Source of the DNA: Candidatus Saccharimonadota bacterium
Lineage (GTDB): Bacteria > Patescibacteriota > Microgenomatia > UBA1406 > GWC2-37-13
NCBI GenBank assembly: GCA_016432445.1
Contig: CP066689.1
Span: 630,001 to 662,000, forward strand
DNA length: 32,000 nucleotides
Direction: 5' to 3'
The notes beneath the pieces were generated by a model. That model saw only the letters and a program-made list of their open reading frames with translations. It was not told where the DNA came from and did not search any database. Shown here piece after piece: positions 14,896 through 32,000 of the stretch (its first letter is position 1; each line of letters opens with the position of its first letter). Position numbers and translations under genes: made by a program.

Positions 14896-15969
14896 TTAGA
14901 TACATTTCTGATACAATGCTTGCACTAAATTGTCAGCTCGCGCCAGATGTTTTTGCCTACCGACATAAAAAATCCCGGCTAGCTGCTGTTTTATCTCTTC
15001 AGTAACTTTGATTAACACGATTCCCAGATCAAACTGTCCATAGACTACAACTGAGTTTAGAGGAGCAAAGAAAACAGCTGGTAAGGCTAAAAGATCTTCT
15101 TCGCCTTTAATTAATATTTGATTCTTTTTATCTTCATAAATCATCCTTTTTATTCGGGATCTTAAAAACGAAGTAGTTTTATAATTAAGGCTTCCAGGCT
15201 TGTTTGTTAAACGATTTTTGAATTTAATAAGTTTTTTTTCGGATACTAAAGATTTACGCTTTGATCGCAAATCGATAATAGTTAAATCCGGCGTTAATCC
15301 CATTTTTTTTAAACTCGCGCTGATAATATCACCAACACTAATGACCATTACCGGCTTAAGTTTTTTAATTTCATTAATTGCCACCTGGGCAGTTTCTAAC
15401 AAGGATTTATTTTTTTGATAAACAACAAAACCCAAAGGTCTTCTGAGATCTTTACGTAATGATTCAGTTATCACAATATTTTTTCGTCTTTTAAAAACCT
15501 GAAAATATGGATCACCATGACGATTCATTAACCCAGCTCTTATCTTTGATGATCTGATGACTTTTGCCCCTTTTCCTTTGATAAGCGGAACTTCAATGAT
15601 TTTTAAGTCAGGCAGTAAGTTCTTTTTTCTTAACTTGTTAATTTTTATTGCGTTTTTTTTAGTTTCTTTAGTCACAATAATTGCTTCCAACTTTTTGTCT
15701 TCCAGAGCTATTCCATAGGCATCATGAAGAGAAATAATTTTAGATTTAGTATAGAAACTCCTTAGTTTTAAATAGTTTTCCAGCTCGGACTTTCTTACCT
15801 CAAAAGGTAATATCTGACCTGAAAGCAACTTATTTTGAATAAAATCATCCACCGTCAAGGCAATAATCACCTTATCCGCTATTTTAAAGGCAAAATCAAT
15901 TATGGAGATGTGACCTTTGTGCAATCTATCAAATGTCCCACCTAAAGCAACATAACTAAATTTACTCAT
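14896..15969 (-). CDS. fusion of archaeal-type phosphopantetheine adenylyltransferase (N) and a DUF359 / GTP-dependent dephospho-CoA kinase-like domain (C)
   Basis: The N-terminus has VALGGTFDRLHKGH, the cytidylyltransferase (T/H)xGH signature, plus ISSKIR-like SSKIRAG. The C-terminus shows the pattern L..PLG, VGD, PDLTIID...KR, NKPGSL, and KGEEDLLALPAVFFAPLNSVVVYGQ as I recall for DUF359. Confidence 0.7.
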   Translation of the reverse strand: MSKFSYVALGGTFDRLHKGHISIIDFAFKIADKVIIALTVDDFIQNKLLSGQILPFEVRKSELENYLKLRSFYTKSKIISLHDAYGIALEDKKLEAIIVTKETKKNAIKINKLRKKNLLPDLKIIEVPLIKGKGAKVIRSSKIRAGLMNRHGDPYFQVFKRRKNIVITESLRKDLRRPLGFVVYQKNKSLLETAQVAINEIKKLKPVMVISVGDIISASLKKMGLTPDLTIIDLRSKRKSLVSEKKLIKFKNRLTNKPGSLNYKTTSFLRSRIKRMIYEDKKNQILIKGEEDLLALPAVFFAPLNSVVVYGQFDLGIVLIKVTEEIKQQLAGIFYVGRQKHLARADNLVQALYQKCI

Positions 15970-16041: not shown

Positions 16042-17457
16042 TCATTTCTTCTTTATTGAAAGATCCCTAAGAGAAAACTCATTGCAGAGAGTTCTTATAG
16101 CATTGTCTACCTGATACTCCTCAATTCCAAAGGTCATACTAATTCCACCGAAAGGATAATTTAAGGCAGCTTTTTTAATTCCCGCACGTGCAAGAGCAGC
16201 CGTAGCTCTAGCTTCAACCTCCATAGAGTTATCTTTTATCCCCTCTCCAACGACACAAACTGCTCCAAGATTACCTGTAACATCCAATCTATCAGGATCG
16301 ATTTCGCTTTGAATCTCATTCAAAGTTTCATCTAATGTTCCGTTGTATTTTCCACTTAACATAATCGATAGGGAATCTTTTTGAGTAGGATCGTATTCGT
16401 AACTTATTTTGTGTTTCCTAAATATTTCTAAAATTCTAGCACCAACTCCATATTCGTCGTTTATCCCAAATTTTCGAATGTCAACTGCCAAATAACCTTT
16501 TTTTCCGGCAATACCCAACACTCTTTCTGTCGGATCAACCACCCTAGTCTTAGTTACCATCGTACCATGATAATTAGGATCAAGAGGATTGATGCCCTTC
16601 CCCGCAAAACTGCTTTTAACATCAAGAGGTATTCCTTGTCTATATATAGGACCAACCGTATCCTTGTTAACTACCTCGGCCCCACCAATACCAATCTCCC
16701 GCGCTTCATCGTAAGTTATATTTGAAATAAATTTTGCATCTTCAACTAATATGGGGTCAGTCGCTCGCATCCCATTTAATTTTTTCCATATTTCGATCAA
16801 TCTTGCATCAATTCCTCTACCAACTATAGATAAAGACACATCTGAACCACCTCTCTCAAACGTAACAACGTTTCCATCTTCATCTTCTGCATAATAACCA
16901 GGAATAACATTTTTAACATTTGATGTAAGAGCAGACCTGATAATTTCGTAGGAAACCGGACTTATTTCACCATTATTTTTCGTTTTGATCAAATCAACGG
17001 CATCATAAAATTTTCCGCCTATAAAATAGGCGAAAATTTGAGCGCTAACCCACTCTCCGCGAGACATAGTCCATTGTCTTGACCGTCCTCCCTCTATTCC
17101 TTCAAGAACAACGTTAAGCAAATCTGGAACTAAAGGACAACCTAAATCCAGCCCTATTTGAGTAAATCGTCTATCAATCTGGTCAAACACCTTTCGATGA
17201 ACTTTATTTCTCCTTTCAAATTCACTAGCTTTGGTAAAAATATCAAAAGTATCTCTAAGTAGATTAGTAATTTTGTCTGAATTCCCATCTTTTCCAGGAG
17301 CCGAAAGAATTACAGATTGACGATATAATTGCTCTCCTGTCGTTATGCTTATTGGATCGACAAACATTATGTCTGCTGCCATCCTAAATCCTCCTGCATT
17401 AGCAACAGAATCTCCGCCAAATTTTGATGCAATCAGACCTCTCTCATGATTTCCCAT
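16042..17457 (-). CDS. aspartate kinase family protein (amino acid kinase fold plus C-terminal ACT-like region)
   Basis: KFGGDSVA at the N-terminus, ERGGSDVSLSIV resembling the RGGSD motif, and a C-terminal region of ACT-like length. 471 aa. Confidence 0.65.
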   Translation of the reverse strand: MGNHERGLIASKFGGDSVANAGGFRMAADIMFVDPISITTGEQLYRQSVILSAPGKDGNSDKITNLLRDTFDIFTKASEFERRNKVHRKVFDQIDRRFTQIGLDLGCPLVPDLLNVVLEGIEGGRSRQWTMSRGEWVSAQIFAYFIGGKFYDAVDLIKTKNNGEISPVSYEIIRSALTSNVKNVIPGYYAEDEDGNVVTFERGGSDVSLSIVGRGIDARLIEIWKKLNGMRATDPILVEDAKFISNITYDEAREIGIGGAEVVNKDTVGPIYRQGIPLDVKSSFAGKGINPLDPNYHGTMVTKTRVVDPTERVLGIAGKKGYLAVDIRKFGINDEYGVGARILEIFRKHKISYEYDPTQKDSLSIMLSGKYNGTLDETLNEIQSEIDPDRLDVTGNLGAVCVVGEGIKDNSMEVEARATAALARAGIKKAALNYPFGGISMTFGIEEYQVDNAIRTLCNEFSLRDLSIKKK

Positions 17458-17479
17458 AATGATTAATCACTCATAAACT

Positions 17480-17502
17480 AAAAAAGCCCTCTTATGAGGG
17501 CT
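17480..17502 (-). terminator. intrinsic terminator / attenuator immediately upstream of the aspartate kinase start codon
   Basis: The minus strand reads AGCCCTC-ATAA-GAGGGCT followed by TTTTTT, 20 nt before the ATG at 17457. Confidence 0.7.
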
Positions 17503-17529
17503 TATTTTGGCTACTCTTAATTTAAATGC

Positions 17530-17598
17530 TTACCAAGATAAGACCCTCTTAGAGAGTCTTTCTTTGGTTTTTTTTGCCTTTAAATTCCCAGATAACAT
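17530..17598 (-). CDS. candidate Lys-rich leader peptide MLSGNLKAKKTKERLSKRVLSW
   Basis: ATG at 17598 and TAA at 17532-17530, translated by hand. It sits between a consensus-like promoter and the terminator, and it overlaps alternative pairing segments. Confidence 0.5.
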   Translation of the reverse strand: MLSGNLKAKKTKERLSKRVLSW

Positions 17599-17610
17599 AT
17601 CTAAATATCA

Positions 17611-17638
17611 ATATTAGCAATATAAATTTATTTGTCAA
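17611..17638 (-). promoter_or_regulatory. sigma70-like promoter (TTGACA-16 nt-TAATAT) for the aspartate kinase leader
   Basis: On the minus strand, TTGACA is at 17638-17633 and TAATAT at 17616-17611. Confidence 0.55.
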
Positions 17639-17681
17639 GGCCATTCAACCTACGAGGTTGCCAACGGACTGTTGGGAAGGC

Positions 17682-18617
17682 TTATCTGAGAATACTTTTC
17701 AGATTGTCGAGACTTTCGGAATCGTAAATTGAAATAGGTAAAATTTGTTTATTGAATTTTTTTAATACATTTATTTTTTGATCAAGCTCGACCTTAACCG
17801 ACAAATCCTTTTTAGTCAAAAGAATAATTTGTTCTTTTTCTAGTAAGGCGGAGTTAAATCTCTCCAGCTCGGAATTTACAATATTATAGTCTGCCTCAAC
17901 ATCTGCAGAGTCTGAAGCAATGCAGTGAAATATCAAACTGACTTTTTCAATATGTTTTAAAAATTTCACCCCTAAACCTTTGCCTTGAGATGCACCTTCT
18001 ATAAGGCCTGGGATATCACCAATGATTTTTCCGTTGAAAGCTCCAAGGTTTGGTTCCAGTGTTGTAAAAGGATAAGAGGCTGTTTTAACATTAGCGGCTG
18101 TTAATACATTTAGTAAACTGCTTTTACCGGCGTTTGGCAGACCAATCAAACCATAATCAGCAATTAATCTCATGATAACTTTATATTGCTTTTCCTGACC
18201 TTCAAAACCCGGTTCCCACTCACGGGGCACCTGATGTGTTGATGTTTTAAAAGCATTATTTCCTCTCCCACCATCTCCGCCTTTGCTTAGCAAAACCTTA
18301 TTTTCGTCCATAAGTTCTACTGAACTTCCGGTTGAGAGATCGGTTAAAACAGTTCCCAAAGGAAACTTAAGAGTAAGGTCGCTGCCGCTTATACCCGTCT
18401 TTCTATAACTTCCGCCTGGTTTTCCATTATCAGCCTTATAGGATTTCTTTTCAGCATATTTATTAAGATTAGGAATTTGCTGATCAACGATTGCAAAAAC
18501 ATTTCCGCCTGATCCGCCATCGCCTCCGTCAGGACCTTTTTTCATTGGGTAGAAAGATACGACCCCGTTTCCACCGTTTCCACCTTTAACTATTATTTCA
18601 ACTTCATCAATAAACAT
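17682..18617 (-). CDS. obg: GTPase Obg (short form without a C-terminal extension)
   Basis: MFIDEVEIIVKGGNGGNG with glycine-rich Obg-fold repeats, the G1 motif GLPNAGKSSLL and DIPGLIEGA. Confidence 0.92.
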   Translation of the reverse strand: MFIDEVEIIVKGGNGGNGVVSFYPMKKGPDGGDGGSGGNVFAIVDQQIPNLNKYAEKKSYKADNGKPGGSYRKTGISGSDLTLKFPLGTVLTDLSTGSSVELMDENKVLLSKGGDGGRGNNAFKTSTHQVPREWEPGFEGQEKQYKVIMRLIADYGLIGLPNAGKSSLLNVLTAANVKTASYPFTTLEPNLGAFNGKIIGDIPGLIEGASQGKGLGVKFLKHIEKVSLIFHCIASDSADVEADYNIVNSELERFNSALLEKEQIILLTKKDLSVKVELDQKINVLKKFNKQILPISIYDSESLDNLKSILR

Positions 18618-19163: not shown

Positions 19164-20201
19164 ATGAGAAAAAAAGATTTTATATTTTCATTGAATGAAT
19201 TAAAAAAATATCTTAAGTCTAAAAAAATAGGTCTAAAAAAAATTAATCTCCCAACTGTTAACTTCAAGCAAAACTTTCCACTGCTTATTCCAAAACATTA
19301 CCTACAGCTTGTTGATTGGGATAATCCTGAAGATCCATTAAAGAAAATGGCCGTACCCAATGAAAAAGAATTAGCGGCTAAAGAATACGAGCTTGAAGAT
19401 CCTCTTGGCGAAAAAATGCATACACCGATACCAGGCATCGTTCATCATTATAACAACCGCTGTCTTTTAAACCTAACCACTAACTGTTCACTGCACTGCC
19501 GCTTTTGTTTTCGAAAACATTTGCTTAAGGAAGGTAAGTATATAGAAAATTCCGACTGCATTAAATACATTAAAGAGCATGAAAAGATATGGGAGGTTAT
19601 CTTGTCAGGAGGCGATCCTTTTATGCTAGATAATTATACTCTGTCGGAAGTTTTAATCAATCTTCGTCAGATTAAACACATTAAAATGATCCGATTTCAT
19701 ACGCGTACACCTGTTGTCTATCCTCAACGAATGACTCCAGCTTTGATTAAACTTCTAAATAATGCCCTTCCGTACTCCATTGTTTTTCACATTAATCACC
19801 CTCGAGAAATTTCTAAAGAGTTTATAAAAATTGTCTCGAAACTTAGGAAAAAGACCTCTCTTTTGCTTTCTCAGACAGTACTGATGAAAGATATTAACAA
19901 TGACCCAAAGATATTAGAGGAATTATTCAAAAAATTAGCAGAGATTGGAATTAAACCTTATTATCTGCATCACCCTGATCTTGTCCGCGGCACGCACCAT
20001 TTTCGAGTCAGTATTGAAGACGGAAAAAGAATAATGAAAAAATTACAGGAAAATTTATCGGGTATCTGTTTACCTGAGTATGTGGTTTATTTGCCAAAAG
20101 GAGGCGGCAAGCTTCCGGTCTCCTACCTTAAAAAGATTAGAAATAATCACTATGCCTCCACTAATTCAGACGGTAAGAAACTCATCTACGTTGACTATTG
20201 A
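19164..20201 (+). CDS. KamA-family radical SAM protein (lysine 2,3-aminomutase / EpmB-like)
   Basis: CSLHCRFCFRK is the CxxxCxxC cluster. ILSGGDPFML and the family-like size (345 aa) also fit. Confidence 0.8.
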   Translation: MRKKDFIFSLNELKKYLKSKKIGLKKINLPTVNFKQNFPLLIPKHYLQLVDWDNPEDPLKKMAVPNEKELAAKEYELEDPLGEKMHTPIPGIVHHYNNRCLLNLTTNCSLHCRFCFRKHLLKEGKYIENSDCIKYIKEHEKIWEVILSGGDPFMLDNYTLSEVLINLRQIKHIKMIRFHTRTPVVYPQRMTPALIKLLNNALPYSIVFHINHPREISKEFIKIVSKLRKKTSLLLSQTVLMKDINNDPKILEELFKKLAEIGIKPYYLHHPDLVRGTHHFRVSIEDGKRIMKKLQENLSGICLPEYVVYLPKGGGKLPVSYLKKIRNNHYASTNSDGKKLIYVDY

Positions 20202-21815: not shown

Positions 21816-22433
21816 ATGAATTATTTGCCTGAATTTTTAACAGTTGCGTTGATTGTTTTTTTATCTACTCTCAGCCCTGGCCCGGCTTTTGCTTTAACAA
21901 TCCGCAATAGTCTAAAATATTCCAGAAAAGCGGCTCTTTTTACCGCTTTAGGTTTAGGCCTAGGTATATTCGTTCATGTCGCTAATTCTTTGCTGGGAAT
22001 GGGCCTTCTTATTTCAAAGTCAGAATCACTTTTTTCCATTATCAAATTAGTCGGCGCTACATACTTAATTTATCTAGGATACAAGTCGTTAACGTACAAA
22101 TCTCATAACGAAAATCTGCGCATCATTCAAATCAAGGATATAACAAACCTTAAGGCTTTTGGAATGGGCTTTCTAACCAATGCCACTAATCCAAACGTCC
22201 TTGTCTTCTTTTTAAGTATTTTTACTTTAGTCGTAAGCCGGTCAACTCCTTTTTCTATCAAAGCTCTTTATGGAATAGAAATGGCTTTGGCCGAATTTGT
22301 TTGGTTTGCTTTTCTTGGTACGTTACTTTCTCACAAGCTTATAAAGCAAAGGATTGGACTATACCAGATATATGTCGAAAGACTAATGGGAGTAATTTTA
22401 ATTATTTTAGGTCTAAAAATTGCTTTTTTTTAA
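21816..22433 (+). CDS. LysE/RhtB-family amino acid exporter
   Basis: The N-terminal LSPGPAFALTIRNS motif, about 6 TM segments, and 205 aa. Confidence 0.85.
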   Translation: MNYLPEFLTVALIVFLSTLSPGPAFALTIRNSLKYSRKAALFTALGLGLGIFVHVANSLLGMGLLISKSESLFSIIKLVGATYLIYLGYKSLTYKSHNENLRIIQIKDITNLKAFGMGFLTNATNPNVLVFFLSIFTLVVSRSTPFSIKALYGIEMALAEFVWFAFLGTLLSHKLIKQRIGLYQIYVERLMGVILIILGLKIAFF

Positions 22434-31506: not shown

Positions 31507-31535
31507 TTGAAAAAAACTATGTTTAATGTTATAAT
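31507..31535 (+). promoter_or_regulatory. sigma70-like promoter (TTGAAA-17 nt-TATAAT) for the thrS leader
   Basis: TTGAAA at 31507-31512 and TATAAT at 31530-31535. Confidence 0.6.
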
Positions 31536-31545
31536 GTATCTGGAA

Positions 31546-31593
31546 ATGAGAAAAATATCAAGTTACGAAACCACTACAACTACTTTCTCCTAA
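31546..31593 (+). CDS. candidate Thr-rich leader peptide MRKISSYETTTTTFS
   Basis: ATG at 31546, five consecutive Thr codons ACC ACT ACA ACT ACT at 31570-31584, and TAA at 31591. It lies between the promoter and the terminator upstream of thrS. Confidence 0.6.
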   Translation: MRKISSYETTTTTFS

Positions 31594-31624
31594 AAGGAGG
31601 GTTAGTGATGTGGTATACATTAAT

Positions 31625-31646
31625 CCTCCGAATAGGAGGTTTTTTT
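31625..31646 (+). terminator. intrinsic terminator / attenuator CCTCC-GAATA-GGAGG plus T7, 40 nt before the thrS ATG
   Basis: A 5-bp GC-rich stem at 31625-31639 and TTTTTTT at 31640-31646. Confidence 0.65.
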
Positions 31647-31685
31647 ATACCTTAAAATTAATTAATAGTTATATATAATAAAAAA

Positions 31686-32000
31686 ATGGAACAAAAGGAA
31701 GAATTAAAAAAAATGAGACATTCTTGCGAGCACGTCTTGCATCAAGCCATGGTGGAACTTTTCCCTGGCTTAAAAAGAGCCATGGGGCCAGCGACAGATG
31801 AGGGATTTTATCTTGATTTCGATTATGACGGAAGAATTTCCGAAGAAGATTTTCCTAAAATTGAAAAAAGGATGCAAGAACTTATAAAAGCCAATTTACC
31901 TATTGTCCGCCAAGAGATCTCTATTGAAAAAGCCAGAGAAATGTTTAAAAATAATCCGTATAAACTGGACTGGGTTGACCAAATTGAAAAAAAAGGTGAA
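31686..32000 (+). CDS. thrS: threonine--tRNA ligase, N-terminal part (starts at the editing/second additional domain; continues past the window)
   Basis: MRHSCEHVLHQAM...GPATDEGFYLDFDY matches the HxxxH...GFYYDF ThrRS/AlaRS SAD signature. The frame is open to position 32000. Confidence 0.85.
   Translation, partial: MEQKEELKKMRHSCEHVLHQAMVELFPGLKRAMGPATDEGFYLDFDYDGRISEEDFPKIEKRMQELIKANLPIVRQEISIEKAREMFKNNPYKLDWVDQIEKKGE

Follow-up and report, generated by a model that had tools for sequence, protein, structure and literature searches.

Introduction

Attenuation by leader peptides is textbook knowledge for Trp, His, Phe, Leu, Thr and Ile/Val, and aspartokinase is normally under the lysine riboswitch. 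This riboswitch (L-box or LYS element) is a roughly 180-nt aptamer of five helices that binds lysine directly, contains no open reading frame (ORF) and brings about lysine-dependent premature termination before lysC in Firmicutes and Gammaproteobacteria. An aspartokinase gene can also follow a leader peptide: thrL, with 8 Thr and 4 Ile codons, precedes thrA, the gene of aspartokinase I-homoserine dehydrogenase I, and stalling at these codons leads to read-through. A leader attenuator with tandem Lys codons is said to precede the lysine (alpha-aminoadipate) cluster of Thermus thermophilus; if so, lysine-responsive ribosome-mediated attenuation would not be unprecedented in principle. In mycobacteria, ribosomes stalled on leaderless polycysteine short ORFs remodel the downstream RNA and switch biosynthetic genes on, acting on translation and not via a terminator (bioRxiv 10.1101/834739). 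Here, we analyse the 224-nt region between obg and an aspartokinase-family gene in a stretch of 32,000 nt (contig CP066689.1, positions 630,001 to 662,000; hereafter the window, with proteins QQG43881-QQG43903) from a closed 1.10-Mb contig assigned to Candidatus Roizmanbacteria, a lineage of the Microgenomates within the candidate phyla radiation (CPR). As judged from the sequence, this region probably holds a leaderless or nearly leaderless, ribosome-mediated transcription attenuator, presumably responsive to lysine, which would gate the monocistronic aspartokinase gene.

Our literature search returned no report of a lysine-codon leader for aspartokinase, nor of any such attenuator in CPR/Patescibacteria. 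Most likely, the mechanism is of a known kind, while the novelty lies in the amino acid sensed (lysine), the target gene (aspartokinase) and the host (CPR).

The leader of the aspartokinase gene

The elements of the putative leader and the gene behind it are listed below, numbered by the window.

17611..17638, minus strand: leader promoter from a consensus scan, with the -35 box TTGACA at 17638-17633, a 16-nt spacer and the TG-extended -10 box TAATAT at 17616-17611
17530..17598, minus strand: leader mini-ORF of 22 codons plus stop, MLSGNLKAKKTKERLSKRVLSW*, with an orthologous ORF in the same frame in 5/5 lineages (see below)
17563..17580, minus strand: putative sensor codons K-A-K-K-T-K (AAG GCA AAA AAA ACC AAA), codons 7-12 of the mini-ORF
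17519..17586, minus strand: extended outer stem enclosing helix 1:2, in the minimum-free-energy fold
17551..17567, minus strand: segment 1, CCAAAGAAAGACUCUCU, 5' arm of the 1:2 anti-antiterminator, in the RNAalifold consensus
17533..17548, minus strand: segment 2, GAGGGUCUUAUCUUGG, partner of segment 1 or segment 3
17496..17510, minus strand: segment 3, CCAAAAUAAGCCCUC, partner of segment 2 (antiterminator) or segment 4
17480..17503, minus strand: intrinsic terminator 3:4, AAGCCCUC-AUAA-GAGGGCUU plus U-run, 23 nt before the aspartokinase ATG
16042..17457, minus strand: regulated gene, divergent aspartokinase of 471 aa (QQG43889) with AA_kinase and ACT domains, ATG at 17457

An earlier reading of the window (the original prediction) had listed the promoter, the mini-ORF, the K-A-K-K-T-K cluster at codons 7-12, three pairing segments (GACTCTC at 17558-17552, GAGGGTCTTAT at 17548-17538 and ATAAGCCCTC at 17505-17496) and a terminator just before aspartokinase with its T-run ending at 17480. 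All of them are present on the minus strand, the cluster at 17580-17563. The helices also exist as proposed but had been under-described: segments 1-3 are longer, and an outer stem at 17586-17519 has to be added. An A8 run that had been placed at 17576-17569 actually lies at 17575-17568. Slippage on this run, which had been suggested as well, was rejected, since the run differs in length between the window (A8) and the relatives described below (A5-A6); this variation indicates that the run is not part of the mechanism.

The leader promoter scores 10/12, a match that taken alone is within chance (10 sites seen versus 11 expected in 3.2 kb). The ATG of the mini-ORF at 17598 lies 12 nt past the -10 box and the stop codon TAA occupies 17532-17530; the 5' untranslated region is very short and the mini-ORF has no Shine-Dalgarno (SD) sequence. 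Helix 1:2 comprises 16 bp (-17.3 kcal/mol), and helix 2:3, at -16.6 kcal/mol in the window, is built from the pairings UUGG:CCAA, CUUAU:AUAAG and GAGGG:CCCUC. At the DNA level, the terminator reads AAGCCCTC-ATAA-GAGGGCTT, with the stem at 17503-17484 followed by the T-run to 17480 (U6). The 1:2, 2:3 and 3:4 duplexes of the window each beat 500 of 500 shuffles, and the fold of the leader is better than all 200 dinucleotide shuffles (z = -3.8). According to the models, the three helices are mutually exclusive. The outer stem is formed by the 5' half of the mini-ORF and the spacer after its stop codon, and segment 1 may also be part of a pause hairpin.

The product of the downstream gene, QQG43889, is annotated at NCBI as hypothetical. 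It matches NCBIfam aspartate-kinase models at up to 4e-78 (PRK09034, full-length match), under the curated cutoffs, contains the Pfam domains AA_kinase and ACT_9, and has as its top solved structure 3tvi, an aspartokinase (5e-58). By sequence comparison, it is a divergent aspartokinase-family enzyme; homologues in the protein index are not close, the nearest being 32-34% identical.

Conservation of the leader in related genomes

Relatives were reached via the genes that follow obg in the contigs with the most similar Obg proteins (63-66% identity). Four contigs, L005, L006, L007 and L172, keep the order obg, aspartokinase, Dus (minus strand) and phosphopantetheine adenylyltransferase (PPAT); together with the window, they form the five lineages of the conservation set. 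Amino-acid identities among them are 59-68% for Obg and 28-44% for aspartokinase, which thus evolves unusually fast. The leader core is 56-71% identical in nucleotide sequence, and such identity between deeply diverged lineages requires selection on the leader itself.

All five lineages have a perfect TTGACA box, a spacer of 16-17 nt and a -10-like hexamer, with the TGn extension in four. The ATG follows 7-14 nt past the -10 box, and in L172 and L005 the distance is just 7-8 nt, so that these leaders are effectively leaderless. The ORF, of 22-27 codons (24-27 in the relatives), runs in one frame through the lysine block in every lineage. The peptides of the relatives are as follows.

L172: leader peptide MSFTSSVLKATKKLPQLRGMLLGQK
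L006: leader peptide MGTQVITNKTMKRSSWRVLSWFVR
L007: leader peptide MISFFIIGVKETKKQSSLRGCLLG
L005: leader peptide MFSSLQINVKKTKKSSSWRGSFFGVNY

Their N-terminal codons cannot be aligned, and the peptides differ in their N-terminal halves. When these codons were shuffled, an ATG ORF in frame arose with a frequency of 0.13-0.19 per sequence, a product of about 1e-4 over the set, and the other two frames have an ATG ORF in 1 of 10 cases. The stop codon comes 0-10 nt past segment 2, and the terminator, followed by at least six T, stands 16-23 nt before the aspartokinase ATG, throughout the set. No lineage lacks any of the helices 1:2, 2:3 and 3:4, and the energy of 2:3 ranges from -16 to -21 kcal/mol. 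Conservation of this kind was what the original prediction had called for, and both parts of it, the ATG-started Lys/Thr mini-ORF in frame and segments 1-4, are kept in the four relatives. Directly after the terminator T-run, four of the five leaders also share a TATTAG(T) motif (L172 2024-2031, L006 4316-4323, L007 2088-2095, L005 4769-4776), whereas the window reads TTAGTTTATGAG at this place. The motif might contribute to the initiation of aspartokinase translation or serve as a distal element of the terminator.

Could the hairpin then be nothing but the terminator of obg, with the ORF and the segments as chance features of an AT-rich spacer? A scan of the window found no other canonical obg terminator before 17503, and two small hairpins directly after obg were rejected as its terminator because they are not significant (z = -1.1). 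However, the leader is kept between lineages so distant that neutral DNA should have been randomised, its alternative pairings are significant, and its identity of 56-71% argues against the recent transfer of a single sequence. In L007, moreover, a GC-rich insert separates the leader from obg by about 0.9 kb, and the leader there has a TTGACA promoter of its own. The original prediction had named a mere obg terminator among the findings that would speak against it; the separation and separate promoter in L007, as well as the absence of the element where aspartokinase is absent, leave this explanation hardly any probability. The insert in L007 (1187-1900; roughly 0.7-0.9 kb) has 57-62% GC compared with about 40% in its flanks and contains a minus-strand ORF of 106 aa that has no Pfam match; a foreign origin or a chimeric assembly could explain it.

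Other Obg relatives (L168, L169, L170, L171 and L176) have neither aspartokinase nor leader, and L177 is too short. In relatives without aspartokinase, obg is followed by the PPAT/DUF359 gene or by unrelated genes; in L169 (2501-4439), obg overlaps the PPAT/DUF359 gene directly after it. Since the leader is absent where aspartokinase is absent, the two behave as a cassette, and these gene orders suggest that it entered between obg and PPAT in a single subclade of Roizmanbacteria. Further members were sought in several ways. A search of genome contigs with aspartokinase alone gave no relatives; a contig search with the four-sequence aspartokinase alignment turned up aspartokinases of the Clostridia type only, about 30% identical, and none from CPR relatives; and a metagenome search with the Obg alignment gave, among the matches listed, random Obg loci of 39-50% identity. 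A covariance model (R1) run over 492 kb of gathered loci found no further member, its best extras (L166 and L167) being plain A-rich terminators. The next-closest aspartokinase clade (P0184; L173-175) comes from a GC-rich unrelated organism and has no similar leader.

In none of the five lineages does a -10-like hexamer stand between the leader terminator and the start of aspartokinase, and a hidden leaderless aspartokinase promoter at this place was therefore rejected. As far as promoter-like boxes can tell, aspartokinase would depend on read-through from the leader promoter. This bears on the explanation that the leader is an independent small gene, i.e., a small RNA of about 120 nt and/or a functional basic peptide of 22-27 aa, unrelated to aspartokinase expression. 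In its favour, both a promoter and a terminator belong to the leader itself; other bacteria offer examples of trans-acting leader peptides and terminated attenuator RNAs (PMC6614838, PMC7298713); and thrS, also in this window, is preceded, past a leader terminator, by a TATAAT box of its own at a distance of 6 nt from the ATG (see below). For aspartokinase, in contrast, the corresponding box is lacking in all five lineages; in addition, a plain terminator would make no use of helix 2:3, the peptide varies in its N-terminal half, and the element occurs only with aspartokinase. We therefore regard an independent gene as highly unlikely.

Lysine codons and the position of the ribosome

The Lys/Thr blocks of the five leaders read KAKKTKE (window), KATKK, KKTKK, KETKK and NKTMKR (L006), and they share the codon block AAA-ACC-AAR-AAA, which is common to one frame in all lineages and in which the ACC (Thr) codon is invariant. 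For comparison, 103 ATG mini-ORFs of 18-30 codons were taken from this AT-rich window, whose proteins contain 9.8% Lys. At least three lysines within five codons occur at the same aligned site in 4/5 leaders, versus 5.8% of the random mini-ORFs; at least four within six codons, as in the window leader, occur in 1% of them. Lysine, in 2-4 copies, is the sole residue repeated in the critical window of all five leaders. A macrolide-type +X+ arrest peptide (K-x-K) was also considered and rejected, for L006 does not keep the motif and the gene behind the leader is a biosynthetic one.

A mini-ORF at the very 5' end without an SD sequence would need a suitable mode of initiation. Among the 27 genes of the window, 21 have a -10-like hexamer ending 4-14 nt (mostly 6 nt) before the start, versus 32% of random positions, and one has an SD-like tetramer, versus 12.5% of random positions (example starts: 9044, 19104, 20230, 21816, 24175 and 25460). 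Leaderless or very short-leader mRNAs thus appear to be the rule in this genome, and a 5'-terminal mini-ORF fits the organism's normal initiation mode.

The position of the ribosome was modelled by folding with a footprint of about 29 nt, the A site on the codons after ACC, and the transcript cut before segment 4. With the footprint at the K codons, segment 1 is masked and the 2:3 antiterminator is predicted in 5/5 lineages; the ribosome-free fold has 1:2 in three of the five; and moving the footprint to the stop codon abolishes or weakens 2:3. Any stall within a critical window of about six codons would free segment 2.

A second leader before thrS

A putative attenuator of the same architecture is present elsewhere in the window, upstream of thrS, as follows.

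31507-31700, plus strand: Thr5 leader attenuator
31507-31535, plus strand: its promoter, TG-extended TTGAAA-17-TATAAT
31546, plus strand: ATG of the leader ORF MRKISSYETTTTTFS*, with five consecutive Thr codons
31625-31646, plus strand: its terminator CCTCC-GAATA-GGAGG-T7, with alternative hairpins
31686, plus strand: ATG of thrS (TIGR00418, 5.8e-19)

That the lineage reuses the architecture within one window had been noted in the original prediction and is borne out by this leader, whose codon run is unambiguous and makes ribosome-mediated attenuation in this genome credible. Unlike aspartokinase, thrS has its own promoter (TTAAAA-16-TATAAT, 6 nt before the ATG) downstream of the leader terminator, so that read-through from the leader would add to a basal leaderless transcript. 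The classical control of thrS is translational autorepression in E. coli and the T-box in Bacillus, not a Thr leader peptide. The closest parallels for the Thr5-thrS leader are the E. coli pheST leader, in which pheM acts as a leader-peptide attenuator of pheST, and other leader-peptide attenuators of tRNA synthetases.

A ribosome-mediated attenuator might also sense general translation capacity, or Thr or Met, and not lysine specifically. The invariant ACC codon, the N-K-T-M-K-R of L006 and the effect of a stall anywhere in the critical window speak for such a sensor. On the other hand, only Lys is repeated in all five critical windows and clusters of this density are rare by chance; furthermore, the match of amino acid and gene in the Thr5-thrS leader suggests that codon-specific sensing is in use in this genome. 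A general, Thr or Met sensor is thus quite unlikely in our estimation.

Probable co-evolution of the helices, and known RNA families

In a swap test, which tells more than single columns with so few sequences, duplex energies were calculated for all combinations of arms drawn from different lineages (120 permutations). The cognate combination ranked 4th of 120 for 1:2, 2nd for 2:3 and 2nd for 3:4, with ties because the arms of the window and L006 are near-identical. For the outer stem, whose sequences are unrelated between lineages, it was the unique best of 120 (-58 kcal/mol versus a mean of -29 kcal/mol). In L007, the change of GAGGGG to GCGGGG in segment 2 has its counterparts in segment 3 (CCCCUC to CCCCGC) and segment 4 (GAGG to GCGG). 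At the sequence level, the swap test supports co-evolution of the helix arms. As for single columns, 85% of cells are paired in the terminator-state structure, with a covariation score reached by 22 of 500 shuffles; the inner helix of 2:3 has 96% of cells paired and one A-U to C-G compensatory change, with a score reached by 105 of 500.

At the gathering threshold, no Rfam family matched the leaders of the window, L005, L006, L007 and L172, and at E <= 10 over 17300-17800 only sub-threshold noise appeared. The best leader-type scores were 20.5 bits for Phe_leader (cutoff 55) and 20.3 for Trp_leader (cutoff 41), and the other leader families (Thr_leader, His_leader, Leu_leader) did not match even at E = 10. 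The lysine riboswitch (RF00168) was found neither at the gathering threshold nor at E <= 10 in 17300-17800, nor in the four relatives; the T-box (RF00230) had no match either, in a leader of only about 120 nt. The nucleotide N after UUGG (the UGGN past segment 2) varies across the lineages (U, U, C, A, A), unlike the acceptor-binding bulge of a T-box. Consequently, a known riboswitch, a T-box or a known leader family is rejected, including the covariance-model hit to a known riboswitch that the original prediction had considered as an alternative.

These results also bear on an RNA-only switch, in which the long hairpin of outer stem and 1:2 would bind a metabolite, a protein or a tRNA and the ORF would be incidental. 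It is the helices that show the strongest lineage-specific complementarity, the A-rich K block lies partly inside helix 1:2, and the lysine riboswitch commonly controls aspartokinase in other phyla. However, no loop, internal-loop or bulge nucleotides are conserved across the five leaders, which together with the lack of any Rfam match, lysine riboswitch and T-box included, argues against a ligand-binding aptamer. The 1:2 hairpin of 35-40 nt would be small for one, UGGN varies as described, and the ORF in one frame in all five lineages has a chance product of about 1e-4. Hence an RNA-only switch is unlikely.

Proposed mechanism

In the ribosome-mediated attenuator that we favour, transcription would start at the TG-extended TTGACA promoter, placing the AUG of the 22-27 codon ORF at or a few nt from the 5' end, and the ribosome would load without an SD sequence, apparently the common situation in this genome. 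With no ribosome, or with a ribosome at the stop codon, segment 2 would be held by segment 1 or covered; with segment 2 unavailable, the 3:4 terminator would form and aspartokinase would not be transcribed. When charged tRNA-Lys (perhaps also tRNA-Thr) is scarce, the ribosome would stall in the K-x-T-K-K block and cover segment 1 and the outer stem, so that 2:3 could pair, the terminator would be blocked and RNA polymerase would read into aspartokinase.

The locus displays a promoter-proximal ORF, a codon cluster, three helices with a U-tract terminator, a masking geometry and a pathway gene, the features by which attenuators are recognised. The Lys-codon reading put forward in the original prediction is supported by the conserved frame, the Lys/Thr block and the exclusive pairings in four relatives. 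We infer from the sequence that the mini-ORF is translated, in coupling with its transcription, and that the ribosome responds to lysine. An attenuator with alternative structures is very likely, and the ribosome on the mini-ORF is likely its sensor; lysine, to which only the position of the codons points, is slightly favoured as the signal.

It should be noted that several observations weigh against this interpretation. The mini-ORF has no SD sequence and its transcription start is a predicted one. In L006, the block contains two lysines only, a weaker cluster, and in general CCAAAAAA, a part of the K block, is at the same time the 5' strand of helix 1:2; some of the AAA codons and of the A-richness could therefore be due to RNA pairing. 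Truncated transcripts of L172 and L007 already favour 2:3 without a ribosome, so that folding kinetics would have to bring about their OFF state. The terminator of L007 is a weak one (about -6 to -7 kcal/mol). In L005, L006 and L172, the stop codon lies 7-10 nt past segment 2, so that a terminating ribosome would cover only the 3' half of the segment. Column-wise covariation is not significant (n = 5), being underpowered with only five sequences. Finally, all matches of QQG43889 to NCBIfam aspartate-kinase models stay under the curated cutoffs, and the membership of the target in a lysine pathway is presumptive.

Genomic neighbourhood

The minus strand carries, in this order, a 158-aa ORF, obg, the 224-nt intergenic region, the 471-aa AA_kinase and ACT gene, and a PPAT/DUF359 fusion. 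The neighbours are located as follows.

18617-17682, minus strand: obg
14896-15969, minus strand: archaeal-type PPAT fused to DUF359 (GTP-dependent dephospho-CoA kinase)
19164-20201, plus strand: KamA-family radical SAM protein (lysine 2,3-aminomutase / EpmB-like)
21816-22433, plus strand: LysE/RhtB-family exporter, homoserine/threonine efflux subfamily (1e-40)

The PPAT/DUF359 fusion, of archaeal type in a bacterium, is kept beside obg across these Roizmanbacteria. The exporter and the KamA-family protein both lie less than 5 kb from aspartokinase, and a functional link of the two to aspartokinase is possible.

Implications

The chances are about even that a wider picture holds, in which a hitherto undescribed family of leaderless or nearly leaderless lysine-codon leaders gates the aspartokinase of a Roizmanbacteria subclade, CPR bacteria that lack SD sequences generally use coupled, sensory 5'-terminal mini-ORFs, as the Thr5-thrS leader would also indicate, and some CPR bacteria keep a regulated entry step of the aspartate family (Lys/diaminopimelate/Thr). 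If the leader itself is real, it would represent a new amino-acid specificity and a new leader family, usable for a covariance model, and a compact natural lysine-responsive switch of about 120 nt. It would also provide sequence-level evidence that ultra-small, largely SD-less, leaderless genomes use ribosome-sensed regulation and transcription-translation coupling, and that an aspartate-family step is under nutritional control in organisms usually considered auxotrophic for amino acids.

Relation to described systems

In its mode of action, the leader described here would resemble the thr, trp and his leaders. The lysine riboswitch has the same logical role as this leader, i.e., termination upstream of aspartokinase, but it is a direct ligand aptamer without an ORF. 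The reported Thermus system would share the lysine codons, and differs in that it serves the alpha-aminoadipate cluster and not aspartokinase, in a member of Deinococcus-Thermus and not of the CPR. Like the mycobacterial short ORFs, the leader has a sensory ORF at the 5' end of the transcript with a codon run of one amino acid, whereas its repeated codon is Lys and it ends in a canonical terminator with a U-tract. E. coli thrL (RF00506) is similar in its promoter-proximal leader peptide, its 1:2, 2:3 and 3:4 helices and its terminator directly before the aspartokinase gene. The two have no sequence or structure homology (no Thr_leader match at E = 10). Moreover, thrL senses Thr and Ile codons and uses an SD sequence, while the leader in the window repeats Lys and has, without an SD sequence, its AUG at or near the 5' end.

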